Source of the DNA: a bacterium
Lineage (GTDB): Bacteria; Patescibacteriota; Patescibacteriia; UBA1558; S5-K13
NCBI GenBank assembly: GCA_029555085.1
Contig: JAKPTO010000051.1
Location: 1 to 30,534 of the forward strand
Direction: 5' to 3'
Length of the DNA stretch: 30,534 nt
Below the pieces are notes generated by a model. That model made no database searches. It was not told the DNA's origin and worked only from the letters and a program-made list of their open reading frames with translations. Positions 1 through 6,930 of this stretch are shown here, in pieces (within the stretch, counting starts at the first letter, position 1; every line of letters starts with the position of its first letter). The position numbers and the translations under genes are program-made.

Positions 1-631
1 TAATAATATTTATCCGGCACAGAAACCTTTTTTATTTAACAATAATCATACGAACCAAGTACAAAAATTATTAAATATAAAAGTCCTAATAAATTCTGTA
101 AAATAAAAGTATCCTAAAAAATAAAATAGGATTACTATTTATTTGCGCGAACCAAATAAACAATAAGTTCTGCGCCAAATAAATATTATTAAGATTTTGT
201 CAAAGAACATTTAAACCTCAAAGCTTGGTTTTAATTCCTCAGTATCAGATTACTATCTTTTGATAATAATCTGATTAAAGGGTGGGAAGCGAGCGACCAA
301 GCACGCTTCCCATAACCATTGCTGATACGGATTTCTGGTATTTATGTCATAGCGCCCCAGAAGATATTGACTCAGTGGGTCAAATATCACACGGCGCTTG
401 AAGCAACAGCTTCATTCTTCCTCCTTTTCCCGTTGGGGAATGGCGGGGGCGTAGCAGGGTTGAGCTAGCCCCCTCTTTAAACCTTGTGGTGTTAACCTTT
501 TTTATCCCACGCTAGCCACACCATTTAACCAGCGGGGAATAATTGTTTAGAGGTGAAGGAGGGTGCGGAGAAGTCCCTTCCCAGATTTCCTCGCTCACAT
601 GGAGCAGGAAGCTGGGAGTGGAGGTAGGGGT

Positions 632-1060
632 CTAGGCCTCTTCGACCAAGACCTCCACCGGAGACTCATCCGGCAGATCCTCTGGGATCTCGTTGTCGGG
701 ATCCCGAGGCTCTTCATCCGGAACCTCCAAATTTTCCACGGAGGAGTCCAATCGGACCACCTCCAACCTGAATGAAGAAAGGGAGATCTTGAATCCCCCA
801 ATCTCCATTTCAAAGCTTTCATGTGTGAAAGCCTTGAAAAAAGTTTTAAATCTCTCTCTACCGTCCAGTAGGACGATAGAGAATGGGTTTCCATCCACCT
901 CCTGGATGGAAACCCAGGGATCTGCCACGTACCGAAGTACGAGGCAGATTCTCAGGGTCGGGGTGAGCTGGATTATCCAGCCCTCCCCTAACTTTTCTGT
1001 TTCCTGAGGGCGTATTACCAGGCCCTCAGACAAATTCAGATCAAGGCCTCTCAAAATCAT
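632..1060 (-). CDS. Orphan hypothetical protein (142 aa) with acidic Pro/Asp/Glu-rich C-terminal tail; GC-rich relative to host
   Basis: ATG at 1060 preceded by GGAAAAGGAGGAGAC (strong SD); TAG stop at 634-632; about 50% GC versus about 25% in neighbouring genes (by eye); no recognisable family. Confidence 0.7.
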   Translation of the reverse strand: MILRGLDLNLSEGLVIRPQETEKLGEGWIIQLTPTLRICLVLRYVADPWVSIQEVDGNPFSIVLLDGRERFKTFFKAFTHESFEMEIGGFKISLSSFRLEVVRLDSSVENLEVPDEEPRDPDNEIPEDLPDESPVEVLVEEA

Positions 1061-1290
1061 GTCTCCTCCTTTTCCCTTTTTTAACTCCTATTATATTTCA
1101 AATAGTGAGTTGGCTAATTATAGCCAGGGAAACAGAGACTTGGTTATTCACCGCTTCTTATGACTAAATTAATAATCACAAAAAGCGGTGAATAACATTT
1201 GAACCTCGAGGCCTGGTTTTATATATTTTTGTCAAAGAGCTATTTCCTTCCCCTGACCCCGGAGGTCCTTTAGACCCCGGGGTCTTTGAT

Positions 1291-1319
1291 AAAAAAAGTC
1301 CCAGTTTTTTACCCGGGAC
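1291..1319 (-). terminator. Intrinsic terminator-like hairpin inside the leader of the minus-strand unit
   Basis: Minus strand GTCCCGG-GTAAAAAA-CTGGGAC (7 bp, one G.U) followed by T7. Confidence 0.65.
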
Positions 1320-1704
1320 CTTAATAAGGAAATTCCTGAGAGCAAAAGGTGGTTAGTCTTTTACTTCCCAGCCGATCTCCTTATTAAAGATATCGGGCGA
1401 TGTGGCTTTTGTTCGACGGTCACAAATCCTTTATTTAGAATTTAATGACACATATCTAGTAGAAAGAACATTGGTTATCAGATTTGTTCGCGAAATCTGC
1501 CAATGCTTGACCCTGTTTTTTTGGATCTCCTCATCTTACGAACAAGCGGATTCAAGACCTTGATTTGACAAGCTAATCAAAATACTCAAATACGCGCTTA
1601 TTTCACTACCCATTTAAATACTTGATTTATCTGGGTAGCTTTATGTAGTTTTTTAAAGTTCTTTTCTTATCAAGATATTTTTGTCTTCTTTATCTTGATT
1701 AATC

Positions 1705-1733
1705 ATCATAGCATATCTAATTTTATTTGTCAA
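1705..1733 (-). promoter_or_regulatory. Sigma70 promoter driving the leftward structured transcript
   Basis: TTGACA (1733-1728), 17 nt, TATGAT (1710-1705), with extended -10 TGn; predicted start near 1698. Confidence 0.7.
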
Positions 1734-1873
1734 GAGCTAATGACAATATATTAATAAAAAAATAATAAAATGCCCATTTTTACTATATTATATTAATATT
1801 TTTATATACTAAATACTATCACTATTTAATGACATATACATATAAAATATATTATTTATTTTGTCAATTTTAT

Positions 1874-1902
1874 TTGATAAAATTTTTTAAATATGATATA
1901 AT
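1874..1902 (+). promoter_or_regulatory. Sigma70 promoter of the TrmB-family gene
   Basis: TTGATA (1874-1879), 17 nt, TATAAT (1897-1902), with TG at 1894-1895. Confidence 0.6.
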
Positions 1903-1955
1903 ATAGATATAATCCCATAAATAAAGGGTTTTATAAACATTTTAATAATCAAAAC

Positions 1956-1964
1956 TTATCCACA
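1956..1964 (+). promoter_or_regulatory. Perfect DnaA box
   Basis: TTATCCACA in the predicted 5' UTR of the TrmB-family gene. Confidence 0.5.
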
Positions 1965-2021
1965 GCTCTATCTTGCAATAAAGATAGATATGTGAATATT
2001 AAAAAATCAATAAATAAATAT

Positions 2022-2774
2022 ATGCATAAAGATCTATTCATGGAGCTTGGACTCTCCCAAAACGAAGCAATTGTATATGAATATTTACTTACAAATGGAA
2101 ATTCCATAGCTAGCGATATAATCAAAAAAACCCCATTAAAAAGAGGGGTTATTTACAATACATTGTCTGATTTAGTCAAAAAAAACCTCATAAAACAAGG
2201 GAAAAAGAACAAAATCCTCTCTTTTTCACCAAATCACCCAGATAAACTACGAGAATATGTAGAAAACAGACAAAGAGAAGCAAGAAAAGCTGAAATCTCT
2301 TTAGAAGCTCAAATGCCAATGCTAATATCAAGTTTTAATCTTATATCAAACCAACCCGGAGTAAGAATATATGAGGGAAAAGATGGATTAGCCAAAACTC
2401 TAAACGACTCCTTGTCTTCTAGAACTGAAATTCTGACTTATGCTGATATATATGGAATGGAAAAATATTTAGGTCGCGCAAATGATAAATATGTAGAAAA
2501 AAGAAGAGAATTGAATATCAAAAAAAGAGGAATTGTTCCTAACACAGAATATGCAAGAAAATATTTGAAAAATTATGACAAATTCGTAACTGATATAAAA
2601 TTTATTGATGGAAAAAAATATCCAATGTTTCTTGAAATGGAAATTTATGATAACAAAATTTCTTTTATGACTTTTTCCGACAAAAAATTAATTGGCGTAA
2701 TTATAGAAAATGAAGAAATTTATAAAACACAGAAATCTATTTTTGAAATTGTTTGGGAAAATGCGAAAGAATAA
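2022..2774 (+). CDS. TrmB-family transcriptional regulator (N-terminal winged HTH plus PLD-like C-terminal domain)
   Basis: ELGLSQNEAIVYEYLL...KRGVIYNTLSDLVKKNLI HTH; VRIYEGKDGL and EMEIYDNKISF motifs typical of CPR TrmB proteins. ATG at 2022 preferred; in-frame GTG at 1992 is an alternative. Confidence 0.85.
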   Translation: MHKDLFMELGLSQNEAIVYEYLLTNGNSIASDIIKKTPLKRGVIYNTLSDLVKKNLIKQGKKNKILSFSPNHPDKLREYVENRQREARKAEISLEAQMPMLISSFNLISNQPGVRIYEGKDGLAKTLNDSLSSRTEILTYADIYGMEKYLGRANDKYVEKRRELNIKKRGIVPNTEYARKYLKNYDKFVTDIKFIDGKKYPMFLEMEIYDNKISFMTFSDKKLIGVIIENEEIYKTQKSIFEIVWENAKE

Positions 2775-2775
2775 T

Positions 2776-5700
2776 TTAAACAATGATACAATAAGCATTC
2801 CGTGTCTCATTTATAATTTTTTCTTTAATAAACAAAAGTGAATCGATTGGCGAATTAATATCTTTAAATTCTTCTAAAAATTTATTTCCTGCAATTTCCT
2901 TATCCTTATAAATTGCAACATAATAGTTTATTATTATTGGCTTTATAACACTCTCAAAATATTCTAATTGCGCCTCTCTGCTTAAAACAGAAAACATAGC
3001 TAAAGACGCTTCTGGATCAGCAATTATTTGATTTGAATAAACCCAATCTTGCCTGTTTCCAGTGTGAGAACTATAAAATTCCCTAAAACCAATTTTTTCT
3101 TCTTCATCTTCTGATTTCATTGCAAAACTCATACCTGTAATACTTTTTGGATAATAAAATTCTGGAATCTTTGATTCATCAAACCATGGTTCTTCTTTTA
3201 TTTCTTGCGAAAGTTCAGAATATGTACTTGATAATCTTTCCTGATTATATTTAAATAACCCAGAATTATAAAATTTATTAAGTGTTTTGTTAATATTTAA
3301 AATATCCGGATTGTCATTTAAATATTTTTCTAAATTTGATTTTACTCGTTGTTGTTCTTTTTGTAATATAGTCAAATCCGAACTTTTCTCTGACAAGGTA
3401 TTGTTGTTACTTAAAATTTTATCATCTTTAGTTTTTATTTTTTTATTTATCATTTCGTGCTTTACATCTCCAAAATCTGATTTTTTATTTAATTCTTTTT
3501 TTAATGATTTTATTGATTGCTCTAATCCATAATTAGAATCATTTAATCTTCTTATTTCTACTATATGTTCTTCAATTTGACTATTTATATTAAAAAGTTT
3601 CTGTAAAAAATTACTATATTCCTCATCTTCCAAACAAGACAAACAAACAGATAAATTCATTATGGCATCTTCCAGATTAAGTCCTCTTAATTTATTCTGC
3701 CTGAGAAGAACATCAACAGCTTCTCTATTTTCATTTAATTGTTTGTAAACGCTTATTATTTTCGCCAAAACATCATATTTAAATTCTTTTTCGTGACTTA
3801 TTTTTAATCCATTTTTTGCTAAAATTATTGCAACCTCTTCTTTAGGGTATTTTGATAATTTAAATAATAATTCTTGTTCTGGCGTCTCTGGATTAACTTC
3901 TTTCGCTTTTTTCAAAATACTCGTCTCTACTATTTTCTCAAATGCATTTGAAACGCCCTTGTTTTCTTTGCACAAATTTTCTACATAATTTAATTCATCT
4001 ATAAAACTCTCATCTTTTTCCCTTGGATATTTTGATATATTCAAATCAAGATTAAATGTTTTTCTATACTTATCATAAAACATTGCATCGTGCTCTCCCA
4101 TTGTTTCCGCAACTGAAAGAGGATCTCTGCCAACAAATCCTTTTGGAAAATTTTCTCCATTATTATAAAGAACCTCATAGTTACTTTGTTGAATAGAATC
4201 CACCACAACAAGATCAGATCCCTTCTTTTGATTATTTAACCAAAATAAATAAGCCAAAGAATCAATAGGTTTTTCAAGCCATTCCTCTGGTTTACTTGTT
4301 ATTCCAACTGGTAAATATATTTCTCTTTCTGTATCTGGAATTTCTTTTTTGTATTCAGATATTTCTTTATAAATACCCTCTCTAAAATTTTCTGGTAAAT
4401 TAATTACCTCTTTCTCAAATATTAAATCAATAATTCTTTCCTTTGCGTTTTCAATTAGCGTATTTTTCTTTGTATTATCATCTCTTGTCCCGTATAAATT
4501 TTCAATTTTTTCCAATTTATCAAATTCACCTTTCAATAAGGCAATGGTCTGGGTTTTTTGCTTTGATATATTATCAAAATTATTTAAAATTTCTTCTATG
4601 GAACTTTTTAAATCTTCTTCGCTTTTGTTTTCTCGAAGTATTAAATAAAGATTATTAAGCTCGCCTGAAGAGTTCTTTAATAATTTTATTCTTAGCTCTC
4701 TTTCATTGAAATCTTTTTCGTGATATTTTTCAAAAAATTCTTGCGCGCTATCAACAATTTTATCAACCAAAGATATCATATTAGCATATCTTTCAAATAC
4801 CATTTTATTAAAATTTTTATCTGCAATTTTTTCATCTAACAATTCCCCTGCTCGTAATATAATTTCTGCATTTTTTAAATCTGAATCACAACTTAAAAAT
4901 GCTTTTATCTTATTAATTTTATTTTCTGGAAAATCCTCAACATCTTTCTCTAAAAAATCTATTACTCTATCTAGTTCCTTTTCTGATTTTTCAGATAAAA
5001 ATTTTAATAAGTAAATTTGATAACGAAAAGGTAAATCTTTCAATTTAATACCAATTTTGTTCTCTATATATTTTCTCATTTCTGGTCTATAAAAATGCTG
5101 AAGTATTAATTCAAAATCTCTAGAACCTATCTTTTCTGGAGATATATATTTAAACTGACGCACAAAATTGTTGTAATCACTAAAAACTATTTCTTGTAAA
5201 TTTTTAGTCGATTCGTTTTCTATATTTATTATTTCTTTCTCTAATCCAAATAAAATATTTTTTTTATTTTTTAAAAACATATCAACTAAATCTGATTCTT
5301 TTTCTATGGTAGGAAGAATTTTTTTTCCTACGCTCATTTTGTAATTATGAATATCTTGATCTGCCATTTTAAAATTATTTATATGTTTACCTTGTAACAT
5401 TTCATATTTATCAAATAATATTAGGATGTTTTTATCCCTAATCTCATCTAAATTCAATTCTTTATTATCAATAATGTGGTTTAAAAAAATATCCATATTA
5501 GAATGAGCGCCATCATAATCTTTTTCATTATAATATTTTTTAAATGAATCATAGAGTTCTTGTAGTTGAATTTTTTGATCATTTTCTAATAAATTCAAAA
5601 TATCTGGAGCTGTGTCTATAAATAACTTGTAACACTCTTGGGATAGATTATTATTATCTTCCAATGCCTTATTTATTCTCTCACTCCTATATTTATTGAG

Positions 5701-6930
5701 CTCTGACACTGATTTTTTAACCTTAACAATTTCATTAAAAAAATCCACCCAGGTATTTTTATCAATATCTGGATAAAATTCAGACCATTTTGAAGCTAAA
5801 AATTCAATATCGTCTATATCGCAATTATAATATTTTGTTAAAATTTCCTCATTTACATAATCAAACACCTTGTAAAAAATTCCACCTCTTAAATTTGAAT
5901 CTATGCTAGAATTTCTAAAATCAGATATAGCAATTTTAATCTGATCAAATTTATAACAAGGAATTGATGACAATTTTTGATTAATTATTTTTTCCTGATT
6001 TATTTTTGAAAATTTAACAGGGGTGTTGCTATGATCAAAAATAGCAATTGCATCTTTTGCAATAAAAAATAATTTTGCTCCGGGGATATCTTCTTTATCA
6101 AATTTTACTGATCTTTCCAACATATCAGAATCATTCTTATCTTCTTGAGAAATAAAATCAACCAACCTGGCATTATATGGACTTCCGAGTCTTGTAACTA
6201 CGCCTCTAGTGGGATGTTCTTTTTCTAAATTGATTCTTTCTTCTAATATCTCTAGATAGGACAAAACAAATGCATTTTTTTCTTCTCGCTTAAGTTGTTG
6301 AAATAAATTATTTAATTTTTCAACACCATTGTGAGCATATCCTTGGGCTATTAAATCTGCCATCAGAAATTCTAACAAATTAAGTTTATCTAATTTCTCT
6401 GCCACAGAACTATCTTTAATATTTTCTAACAAACTATCTCCAAAATTTTCAAAATTCATTCTATACACAAGTTCGGGATTAAGTCCTTGACCCATTATAT
6501 TTCTTGCATTTAAAGATCTAGTGGATTCTACAGCTATATTAAAATGATCATTGATTTTTAAAGCAGATGCGATATTTGGACTTCCAGCAAAAAATGCTTT
6601 ATAAATTTTAACATCAAATTCATATAATTTATCTTTATCATCAATATTATTATAAAAATTCAACATTTCTTCAATAAATATCTTAACTCCTTGTCTCAAA
6701 TCCTCATAATAATACCCATCAAATTCAAAATCTTTATTTCTCGTAATAGATAAAATTTTAGAAAATATTTCATGGTTAAAATCAAACATATATGCGTCAG
6801 ACGCACGCTCTTTATCATCTAGAATCTTGTTAAATATTTCATTAGCAAAATCACGAATTTTTTGTTCCATAGCTTCATTCAATTCGTAATCTTCATTATT
6901 CTCTTCTTTTTTAAAATTTTCTTTCAACAT
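2776..6930 (-). CDS. Large hypothetical protein (1384 aa), mostly helical or coiled-coil, with a possible CDPS-like Rossmann domain in the C-terminal third
   Basis: 4.1 kb uninterrupted ORF with host-like composition; the domain guess comes from motif resemblance only. Confidence 0.85.
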   Translation of the reverse strand: MLKENFKKEENNEDYELNEAMEQKIRDFANEIFNKILDDKERASDAYMFDFNHEIFSKILSITRNKDFEFDGYYYEDLRQGVKIFIEEMLNFYNNIDDKDKLYEFDVKIYKAFFAGSPNIASALKINDHFNIAVESTRSLNARNIMGQGLNPELVYRMNFENFGDSLLENIKDSSVAEKLDKLNLLEFLMADLIAQGYAHNGVEKLNNLFQQLKREEKNAFVLSYLEILEERINLEKEHPTRGVVTRLGSPYNARLVDFISQEDKNDSDMLERSVKFDKEDIPGAKLFFIAKDAIAIFDHSNTPVKFSKINQEKIINQKLSSIPCYKFDQIKIAISDFRNSSIDSNLRGGIFYKVFDYVNEEILTKYYNCDIDDIEFLASKWSEFYPDIDKNTWVDFFNEIVKVKKSVSELNKYRSERINKALEDNNNLSQECYKLFIDTAPDILNLLENDQKIQLQELYDSFKKYYNEKDYDGAHSNMDIFLNHIIDNKELNLDEIRDKNILILFDKYEMLQGKHINNFKMADQDIHNYKMSVGKKILPTIEKESDLVDMFLKNKKNILFGLEKEIINIENESTKNLQEIVFSDYNNFVRQFKYISPEKIGSRDFELILQHFYRPEMRKYIENKIGIKLKDLPFRYQIYLLKFLSEKSEKELDRVIDFLEKDVEDFPENKINKIKAFLSCDSDLKNAEIILRAGELLDEKIADKNFNKMVFERYANMISLVDKIVDSAQEFFEKYHEKDFNERELRIKLLKNSSGELNNLYLILRENKSEEDLKSSIEEILNNFDNISKQKTQTIALLKGEFDKLEKIENLYGTRDDNTKKNTLIENAKERIIDLIFEKEVINLPENFREGIYKEISEYKKEIPDTEREIYLPVGITSKPEEWLEKPIDSLAYLFWLNNQKKGSDLVVVDSIQQSNYEVLYNNGENFPKGFVGRDPLSVAETMGEHDAMFYDKYRKTFNLDLNISKYPREKDESFIDELNYVENLCKENKGVSNAFEKIVETSILKKAKEVNPETPEQELLFKLSKYPKEEVAIILAKNGLKISHEKEFKYDVLAKIISVYKQLNENREAVDVLLRQNKLRGLNLEDAIMNLSVCLSCLEDEEYSNFLQKLFNINSQIEEHIVEIRRLNDSNYGLEQSIKSLKKELNKKSDFGDVKHEMINKKIKTKDDKILSNNNTLSEKSSDLTILQKEQQRVKSNLEKYLNDNPDILNINKTLNKFYNSGLFKYNQERLSSTYSELSQEIKEEPWFDESKIPEFYYPKSITGMSFAMKSEDEEEKIGFREFYSSHTGNRQDWVYSNQIIADPEASLAMFSVLSREAQLEYFESVIKPIIINYYVAIYKDKEIAGNKFLEEFKDINSPIDSLLFIKEKIINETRNAYCIIV

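Follow-up and report, generated by a model that had tools for sequence, protein, structure and literature searches.

A covariation-supported structured RNA at the head of an array of hairpin-rich cassettes with boxA-like junctions in Patescibacteria

Organization of the locus

The DNA analysed here (the window: 30,534 nt, G000:C22:1-30534, beginning at the contig start) belongs to a Patescibacteria genome, G000, of 1.02 Mb (1,024,725 bp; 29% GC; 99.4% complete). Near the window start, on the minus strand and divergent from a gene for a TrmB-like regulator, lies a GC-rich region that a first-pass annotation had read as a long, hairpin-dense and largely non-coding RNA transcribed with the antitermination of rRNA operons. 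We found that positions 1702-1288 are occupied by a new, covariation-supported RNA, which has its own terminator and heads a cassette array. Coordinates are window positions throughout. The relatives compared were G001 (same genus), G006 and G009 (two other genera), G072 and G051 (another family of the order) and G038 (a third family). In the direction of transcription, and with the regulator gene first, the region contains the following features (ORF, open reading frame; SD, Shine-Dalgarno):

1992-2774, plus strand: gene for a TrmB-like winged-helix regulator, divergent from the unit (Pfam TrmB, E = 1.8e-11)
1733-1705, minus strand: sigma-70 promoter, TTGACA-17-(TG)TATGAT (11/12 matches plus the TG extension; kept in four genomes)
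1702-1288, minus strand: conserved structured RNA of about 415 nt, an RNA gene or a long leader (from conservation, folding and covariation)
1661-1650, minus strand: boxA-like element 1, GAACTTTAAAAA, a weak candidate
1380-1326, minus strand: the most conserved hairpin of the RNA, near its 3' end (GGAGATCGGCTGG...CAGGAATTTCC; invariant in the four family members)
1322-1288, minus strand: intrinsic terminator with a 7-bp GC stem and 8-nt loop (1322-1295), then T7 (U7 in the RNA)
1284-1255, minus strand: hairpin before boxA 2, in a boxB-like position (sequence read by eye)
1240-1228, minus strand: boxA-like element 2, GCTCTTTGACAAA (one of three genome-wide 12-mer matches)
1221-1191, minus strand: copy 1 of direct repeat D1, a quasi-palindrome of 31 nt with 84% identity to 233-203
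1196-1143, minus strand: palindrome module with 24-nt arms, 88% complementary (inverted repeat I3)
1142-1061, minus strand: translation leader of the cassette, with GGAGG at 1069-1065 (same leader type elsewhere)
1060-632, minus strand: GC-rich (51%) orphan ORF of 142 aa (ORF list and codon statistics)
631-236, minus strand: structured 3' trailer (z = -7.65) with a mini-ORF at 414-379 behind a strong SD sequence and conserved hairpins at 312-283 and 275-244
233-203, minus strand: direct repeat D1, copy 2, bracketing the cassette with copy 1
208-196, minus strand: boxA-like element 3, GTTCTTTGACAAA (likewise one of the three 12-mer matches)
195-1, minus strand: conserved leader-like block with a hairpin (185-137), a hairpin and T-run near 128-105 and long-range arms (191-168 with 24-1)

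The GC content is 0.41-0.57 across 201-1400 and 0.14-0.29 in the flanks, the GC-rich body sitting in an AT-rich genome (GC 0.29). The near-consensus promoter of the first-pass annotation is present at 1733-1705, where it is the sole match scoring 11/12 on the minus strand of the region. Over the 8.5-kb array of G009, the RNA promoter is likewise the best sense-strand match (10/12 plus TG), every other sense match scoring 9/12. A similar promoter type also occurs at C41:31356 and C20:453 of G000. The first of these (C41:31356-31423; L003 1500-1800) is a near-twin, TTGACA...TAGATATGCTATTATAAT, followed by a GC-richer, ORF-free stretch of about 300 nt that ends in a T-run, has no Rfam match at E <= 0.01 and is possibly another unannotated RNA. 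The second (C20:453-483; 31 nt at 90% identity) follows a tRNA and precedes nusA (C20:761-1213) by about 280 nt.

Orthologues of the TrmB-like protein with 82-85% identity adjoin homologues of the 415-nt RNA in G001, G006 and G009, and orthologues at 41% (G072), 37% (G038) and 33% (G051) identity adjoin similar units. The layout, that is, a TrmB gene, promoter, structured RNA and GC-rich, SD-led cassettes with GTTCTTT-type junctions, recurs in this way in two further families (G072/G051 and G038). A paralogous TrmB-like gene (32% identity) is found at G009:C13:11356 and G005:C3:123799, with GCTCTTTGACAA about 235 nt off on its divergent side and without a GC-rich island.

It had been suggested that the unit may extend beyond the window start, but it does not extend far. 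Window positions 1-141 are identical to G000:C7:3199-3339 (141 bases), suggesting that the two contigs adjoin. Past the leader-like block, the next features on C7 are a hairpin/terminator with its T-run and, ending 57 nt on, a zinc-ribbon gene in convergent orientation, so that the unit ends just outside the window, at an estimated 60-100 nt past its start. The downstream flanking genes of G000 match those of G001 and G006.

The structured RNA and the cassette array

The first 640 nt or so of the unit had been described as non-coding and hairpin-rich. No ORF of at least 60 aa is present on the minus strand between 1700 and 1061, and in this respect the description stands, but the first 415 nt or so are a discrete conserved RNA with its own terminator rather than generic spacer. 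DNA from the 5' end of the TrmB gene to about position 1140 is 70-78% identical in G001, G006 and G009, and the RNA is kept in four genomes of three genera, next to the TrmB-like gene, with no conserved ORF within 1702-1288. It contains a 5' hairpin (1699-1669), the weak boxA-like sequence at 1661-1650 and the invariant loops TTTCGCGAACAAA and TAACCAC.

The 1702-1288 sequence folds with -120.5 kcal/mol (z = -7.43), a stability reached by none of 100 shuffles. With RNAalifold, an alignment of the four sequences (mean identity 81%) gave 110 pairs, 25 of them with compensatory changes. For the covariation test, pairs competing with the 5' hairpin and the terminator were removed, which left 90 pairs in 12 helices; 96.9% of the cells were paired and 24 pairs had double (compensatory) changes, compared with 11.5 +/- 2.2 in shuffled alignments (0/500 reached 24) and 1-5 in slid controls. 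The 5' hairpin is part of the minimum free energy (MFE) fold, as the first-pass annotation had it, and it persists in G006 with an A-U pair replaced by C-G; G038 retains the promoter together with an AATCAAG...CTTGAT 5' hairpin.

A covariance model of the 3' half scores 199-206 bits in the four family members and also matches G072 (46.4 bits) and G051 (29.3 bits), 6 of the 86 genomes of the order in total. In G072 and G051, it is the long 3' hairpin that is conserved, with compensatory changes. The 5'-half model (R2) had no credible match in 15 other loci (the best, 22.7 bits, being at the wrong place), so that the 5' domain seems confined to the family. Searches of large collections with exact 19- and 20-mers from the 3' hairpin returned only G001 and G009 apart from chance matches; those in Micromonospora (genome contigs) and in one metagenome contig were rejected, as their flanks had no similarity. 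A degenerate pattern of the 3' hairpin occurred in 2 of 401 genomes in a class-level scan, G000 and G006, and in none of the viral contigs. Assignment to a known Rfam family had been named as an outcome that would speak against the first-pass reading. A scan of window positions 1-2100 with Rfam 15 gave no hit at the gathering score. The 15 hits at E <= 10 were headed by RNAI, with 22 bits where the cut-off is 47, and by a miRNA model, and did not assign the RNA or the trailer to a family; neither a hammerhead nor any other ribozyme was found in the region by the same scan. The tmRNA and RNase P RNA were considered and rejected as identities of the 415-nt RNA, both lying elsewhere in the genome.

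The intrinsic terminator predicted at the end of this RNA is present and is kept with compensatory changes in three relatives; its stem covaries, G001 having ATCCCG/CGGGAT. An alternative pairing of the 5' arm of the terminator with 1392-1388 (RNAalifold columns 312-316 with 397-401), seen in four sequences only and weak in G001, is a possible antiterminator.

Downstream of the terminator, the one GC-rich orphan ORF of the first-pass annotation was confirmed at 1060-632. Its 142-aa product could not be placed in a Pfam, PHROGs or PADLOC family. A set of 5.8 billion proteins includes no relative of it except its own 98-aa fragment, and the protein atlas gave only sub-threshold leads (<=0.83) with a poor model (predicted local distance difference test score, pLDDT, 0.39). 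The ORF has GGAGG 5 nt ahead of its ATG, GC contents of 0.58, 0.34 and 0.61 at the first, second and third codon positions and 38% G at first positions, and an ORF of at least 142 codons arose in just 1.05% of 2000 dinucleotide shuffles of 1139-236. By its SD sequence, codon GC and the shuffle test, the ORF is probably coding, in which case its hairpins lie inside an mRNA and the description of the unit as largely non-coding is wrong for 1060-632.

The RNA of this ORF is predicted to fold into a chain of near-perfect hairpins (MFE -217.4 kcal/mol, z = -10.9), its antisense strand folding to -188.1 kcal/mol, 29 kcal/mol weaker than the sense strand. The hairpins listed earlier for the trailer (617-579, 475-446, 399-353, 312-283 and 275-244) are all in the MFE fold of 631-236, and that at 185-137 was recovered as inverted repeats. 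Hairpin density is thus beyond chance in the RNA, the ORF and the trailer (z = -7.43, -10.9 and -7.65, respectively); the first 429 nt of the TrmB gene, used as a control, gave z = -1.26. The trailer is also conserved, positions 427-230 being 76% identical in G001 and 317-236 being conserved in G009 and G006. The mini-ORF at 414-379 consists of 11 codons behind a copy of the ribosome-binding site (RBS) block of the cassette, GGGAAAAGGAGGAAGAATG, and is followed by a hairpin; the block itself is the cassette-leader RBS block repeated at 434-412 (D3). The same element occurs in G001 with a 5-codon ORF; it might represent a leader peptide or the remnant of a cassette start that has decayed. An alternative genetic code for the 11-codon mini-ORF was considered by eye and dropped, since long standard-code ORFs surround the locus.

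Extreme folding is not confined to this ORF. In six relatives, 15 of 20 array ORFs had z <= -5 (range -2.1 to -12.7; first 500 nt, 25 shuffles each), including ORFs for recognisable enzymes, namely a DEDD exonuclease (-11.4), a DHH hydrolase (-8.5) and a DEAH helicase (-5.4), while 5 control genes gave z from +0.5 to -3.2. The sense strand was more stable than the antisense strand in 19 of the 20 array ORFs, as expected of selection on RNA through G-U pairs. Given the hyper-structure of the array ORFs, selection for RNA helices accounts for their high GC content better than recent import does.

Relatives hold different genes between recurring linker modules, in agreement with the suggestion of a cassette array. 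Each linker consists of a hairpin, a boxA-like motif, the palindrome with 24-nt arms (1196-1143 in G000) and a leader ending in GGAGG-N5-ATG. In G009, the linker recurs before three unrelated ORFs. Cassette starts in G009 (two of them), G001 and G006 also carry the palindrome module, and the leader type ...GGGAGGAGAT-ATG also precedes unrelated ORFs in G009 (3 ORFs) and G006. In the modelled MFE fold of 1290-190, the two D1 copies may form a 13-bp long-range helix between leader and trailer. The last 209 nt of the unit within the window, a block that opens with boxA 3, occur in 6 copies in 5 genomes, with 83-86% identity over about 210 nt in G009 (96-98% over the first 55 nt) and 82% in G001. 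In the relatives, the block ends at the RBS of varied genes, and in G000 no gene follows it. Since the relatives' loci have no 16S rRNA gene downstream of the block, it is not a 16S leader; G000 itself has 23S and 5S rRNA genes in the window (13395-10091, minus strand), and no 16S rRNA was found in its assembly, where it is probably unassembled.

The cargo of the arrays is varied. Families with a link to type III CRISPR signalling are matched by cassette proteins of the relatives: DHH_CorA, at E = 3e-33, and a small protein described as "sometimes fused to CARF", at E = 6e-16, the loci being L012 6230-7453, L012 5712-6233, L044 2771-3220 and L045 3643-4212. A DEDD exonuclease-like cassette protein is common to G009 and G051 (43% identity). 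The G001 array (L013 3379-6770) has, between the palindrome module and the boxA block, three ordinary low-GC genes encoding a class-V aminotransferase, an unknown protein and a radical SAM protein, and arrays can thus also hold native-looking genes.

boxA-like elements and expression

Three boxA-like elements had been proposed, of which two are non-random and the first is not. Element 1 is present, and GAACTTTAAAAA is kept in 3 of 4 genomes (G009 has GAACATTTAAAA), but it has two core mismatches and its 12-mer occurs 3 times genome-wide against 1.4 expected, i.e. at background frequency. For elements 2 and 3, the genome-wide count does not point to background: the pattern GYTCTTTGAMAA occurs exactly three times in 1,024,725 bp on both strands (mononucleotide expectation 1.1), and the sites, 13495 in the 23S leader, 1240 and 208, are all on the minus strand of one contig within 13.3 kb. 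The elements at 1240-1228 and 208-196 have G[CT]TCTTTGA[AC]AA in common with the 23S-leader boxA, GTTCTTTGAAAA. This latter boxA is preceded by a small hairpin and an A-run, and elements 2 and 3 sit after hairpins likewise, in keeping with the hairpin-then-boxA order noted earlier. Hairpins of other sequence stand at the position equivalent to 1284-1255 in G009 and G006.

Conservation supports the two elements as well. AG[CT]TCTTTGA is an invariant island in four genomes amid divergent post-terminator sequence. In G009(b), G001, G006 and G011, element 3 has the form G[TC]TCTTTAACA, an exact match to GYTCTTTAANA, which is given as the gamma-proteobacterial boxA consensus in Baniulyte et al. 2017 (PMC5725501). 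Four of the 11 genome-wide matches to GYTCTTTRAMAA in G009 lie within 7.8 kb of the locus on the array strand, as do 2 of 5 in G006 at the locus. Strict 12-mer matches within arrays are all on the array strand, and the looser motif gives a few antisense matches. Elements 2 and 3 of G000 lie in sense orientation downstream of the 1733-1705 promoter; no RNA contig, these contigs being strandless, covers either of them. A candidate paralogous locus on C5 was rejected on reading its sequence.

The region is represented in sequence runs at both the DNA and the RNA level, the latter being metatranscriptomes. Of the sampled words of 100-1760, 99-100% were present in 14 DNA runs and 34-60% in 6 RNA runs. 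RNA contigs from four runs of four studies cover 1683/1681-1395/1407 in every case (1660-1440 in X17) and also cover 1139-315, with cassette contigs at 492-1139 and 326-516 (X15), 326-529 and 534-882 (X16), 320-799 (X17), and 315-522 and 494-723 (X20). In X15, the top contig depths were in the trailer contig 326-516, and this was the only run with RNA contigs of the TrmB gene. In the same run, adapter sequence abuts contigs at 1681 and at 1139, the latter just 3' of the palindrome module, indicating that RNA fragments end there. Contigs also end near 1395-1407 in 3 runs and near 315-326 in 4 runs, which is no more than a weak hint of RNA ends or of hairpin-related assembly breaks.

Proposed transcription of the unit and alternative explanations

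The Nus factors required for antitermination of the rRNA type are encoded in G000: NusB (PF01029, C36), S10/NusE (PF00338, C41), NusG (PF02357, C21) and NusA (PF08529, C20). Terminator-like hairpins are in excess in the region, with 5 in window positions 1-2100 against 2.3 +/- 1.6 expected (4 in sense orientation; 2 hairpins, or 3 sense rows, inside the ORF) and 18 in the G009 array against 7.2 +/- 3.0 expected (10 in sense orientation). Hairpins inside the G000 ORF include those at 916-884 and 799-781. We suggest, as a plausible reading whose chances appear about evenly balanced, that the region is one transcription unit of the rRNA-operon style, in which polymerase modified at the boxA sites traverses the hairpins and terminators.

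The course of events might be as follows: i) the strong promoter would fire divergently from the TrmB-like gene, whose product would set its activity; ii) the 415-nt RNA would be made first, ending at the intrinsic terminator, and polymerases passing this terminator would enter the cassette array, so that the RNA could be the first stable product of the unit, or else a leader that controls access to the array through its terminator; iii) each cassette would supply a linker (hairpin, boxA, palindrome and SD leader) and a GC-rich gene with an mRNA of chained stable hairpins; iv) NusB-S10 would be brought onto polymerase by boxA RNA, together with NusA and NusG, in the manner of rrn operons; and v) the modified elongation complex would ignore pausing and termination signals in the hairpins and aid RNA folding. 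The rrn antitermination complex is known to serve also as an RNA chaperone. What is established here comprises the anatomy, its conservation and covariation, the hyper-structure, the motif statistics, the Nus genes and the occurrence of RNA from these parts in metatranscriptomes; the model goes beyond this in having Nus factors bind, polymerase read through the terminator, TrmB exert control and the structure serve a purpose.

Several observations weigh against one antiterminated unit. The Rho RNA-binding domain was not found in the 99.4%-complete G000 genome by a search that found it in 9 of 14 control genomes, so that the best-documented job of boxA, blocking Rho, may not apply. The G000 terminator, which is canonical (U7), may do no more than close off a separate small RNA. 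The gap 1395-1140 is bridged by none of the RNA contigs, which carry neither strand nor reliable levels, and the adapter-tagged ends at 1681 and 1139 fit two RNA species or processing equally well as one precursor. The boxA candidate in the RNA itself (1661-1650) is weak, being at background frequency, and the G000 elements have G where the gamma-proteobacterial consensus has A (position 8). Counts of the looser pattern equal those of a reversed-pattern control (11 vs 8 in G009, 5 vs 8 in G006 and 6 vs 7 in G001); the signal therefore resides in clustering, fixed strand and conservation, not in abundance. On the side of structure, there are just four full-length homologues of the RNA and the structure tested was derived from the same alignment, and the control genes for the folding scores were labelled native by the author, from GC content and annotation, ahead of scoring.

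Part of this evidence would equally suit two or three independent RNAs, with a trans-acting and always terminated 415-nt RNA, a cassette transcribed or processed apart, and boxA acting locally in folding, processing or suhB-like repression. The conserved canonical terminator is in accord with such an arrangement, as are the separate contigs for 1683-1395 and for 1139-315 and the adapters that mark their ends (1681 and 1139), and repression of suhB through boxA has been documented (PMC5725501). We nevertheless consider this explanation rather unlikely, since there is no sense promoter of at least 9/12 between 1290 and 1139 and no strong one within the G009 array, and since no terminator is present between the 3' hairpin and the first cassette in G072 and G051.

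That the GTTCTTTGA-type motifs, the D1 repeats and the palindrome are recombination sites or homology arms for cassette swapping, with an incidental likeness to boxA, is suggested by the difference in cassette content from genome to genome among recurring linkers, by the 31-nt direct repeat (84%) bracketing the G000 cassette, by a block duplicated around a two-gene insert in G009 and by the palindromes of about 54 nt that recur at cassette starts. No recombinase gene was found in the loci examined, however, a Pfam scan of 33 array-region proteins giving no recombinase domain. The core of the integron attC site is GTTRRRY, and the motif here, GTTCTTT, is not this core; it is instead identical to the rRNA-leader boxA, and the strict 12-mers lie on the array strand without exception. 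A role confined to DNA therefore seems quite improbable, though the motifs could serve both cassette exchange and a function in the RNA.

As for the motifs being promoter -35 elements or TrmB operators that give each cassette its own regulated promoter, both G000 elements do contain a perfect TTGACA, the regulator is always adjacent and the palindrome module could be a dimer operator. In the relatives, however, TTGACA varies (TTGAAA, TTGATA, TTTAAC) while the upstream GYTCTTT is invariant, and no -10 hexamer follows any copy at 16-18 nt downstream; this weakest of the rival readings of the motifs is very unlikely. Recent import from a GC-rich donor, or an assembly chimera with chance motif matches, would fit the GC content of 0.41-0.57 in a 0.29 genome and the orphan ORF, but is largely refuted, and hardly credible, in view of the 99-100% of sampled words in 14 DNA runs, the synteny in three genera with GC-rich structured cassettes at the same locus in every relative, the lack of a match in phage and plasmid collections, and the motif statistics.

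If the region is indeed one antiterminated unit, a further step may be considered, although we think it unlikely: the Patescibacteria of the order would keep an "rRNA-mimic" platform in which accessory genes are carried in GC-rich, hairpin-saturated RNA made from a strong nusA-type promoter by Nus/boxA-modified polymerase, the 415-nt RNA being a sensor or chaperone that gates the terminator under TrmB, and the structure resisting single-strand-specific RNases, e.g. collateral RNases that come either from the host or from defence systems of the bacterium itself. The cargo to which this refers includes many orphans and some proteins related to type III CRISPR accessory functions (a DHH/NrN-like hydrolase, a CARF-linked small protein, a DEDD exonuclease and a DEAH helicase).

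Antitermination by Nus/boxA is textbook knowledge in the case of rRNA and has also been described for CRISPR arrays and a few mRNAs. With rrn antitermination (boxB-boxA-boxC in leader and spacer; NusB and NusE along with NusA, NusG and SuhB), the unit shares a strong promoter, a hairpin followed by boxA, a core identical to the boxA of its own 23S leader, a structured transcript with repeated boxA, a possible end-to-end helix around the cargo and the presence of the Nus genes. It differs in that the cargo is a 415-nt RNA plus SD-led coding cassettes, in that a terminator stands between the promoter and the first good boxA, in that no boxC was identified here and in that the unit is known from sequence and RNA contigs. 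The lambda nut site (boxA-spacer-boxB) resembles the linker in having boxA followed by a hairpin, the palindrome module in this case, but no N-like protein is present here. HK022 put and Bacillus EAR are RNAs that bring about processive antitermination. They are similar in being promoter-proximal structured RNAs ahead of terminators to be passed; the 415-nt RNA has no similarity to them (no Rfam hit) and is several times larger.

BoxA-led CRISPR arrays were reportedly described by Stringer et al. in 2020. With these arrays and with the suhB 5' untranslated region and other BoxA-led genes (the latter in PMC5725501), the unit shares a consensus-type boxA upstream of non-rRNA units and long, poorly translated transcripts that would benefit from Nus modification. 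These systems act through Rho, in contrast to the present genome, in which no Rho RNA-binding domain was found, and here boxA stands at every cassette junction and the mRNAs are saturated with hairpins. Integron arrays, including clusters of attC sites lacking integrases (CALINs), are similar in having a divergent constant gene, a single upstream promoter, and variable, mostly orphan and promoterless cassettes with imperfect palindromes between them. The Patescibacteria arrays have no integrase, their constant gene is of the TrmB type, the boxA-like junction is not an attC core (by comparison with the GTTRRRY core, no attC model being run), and their cassettes have conserved RBS leaders and hyper-structured coding regions.

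Among the papers listed on structured or non-coding RNAs, GC-richness, mRNA structure or boxA in Patescibacteria, no description of such a unit was found, which is weak evidence of its absence in print. The boxA/Nus logic itself is known; what is new is its use in coding cassettes that are saturated with hairpins and stand behind a new RNA: boxA here punctuates protein-coding cassettes whose mRNAs are base-paired to the degree of stable RNAs, no Rho having been found in the organisms concerned. If the proposed reading is right, the rrn machinery would have a second use in transcribing and folding hyper-structured messengers, and GC-rich, "foreign-looking" islands in genomes of the Candidate Phyla Radiation (CPR) would be explained by selection for RNA structure, not by horizontal transfer. 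The 415-nt RNA, with its fixed regulator neighbour, offers a tractable experimental entry point in a mostly uncultured lineage.

A few other features of the genome are worth recording. The window contains two tRNAs (ARAGORN) and, directly downstream of the TrmB gene, an ORF of 1384 aa (2776-6930, minus strand) without a Pfam family. The other end of C7 (C7:1-141) has 140-141 bases in common with the ends of C25, C36, C5 and C3 and likewise with parts of C27, C41 and C20, suggesting a dispersed repeat. Other GC-rich stretches (0.44-0.48) of G000 are located at C31:11001-14200, C48:48201-49150 and C10:51-600, and these may be more structured cassettes.

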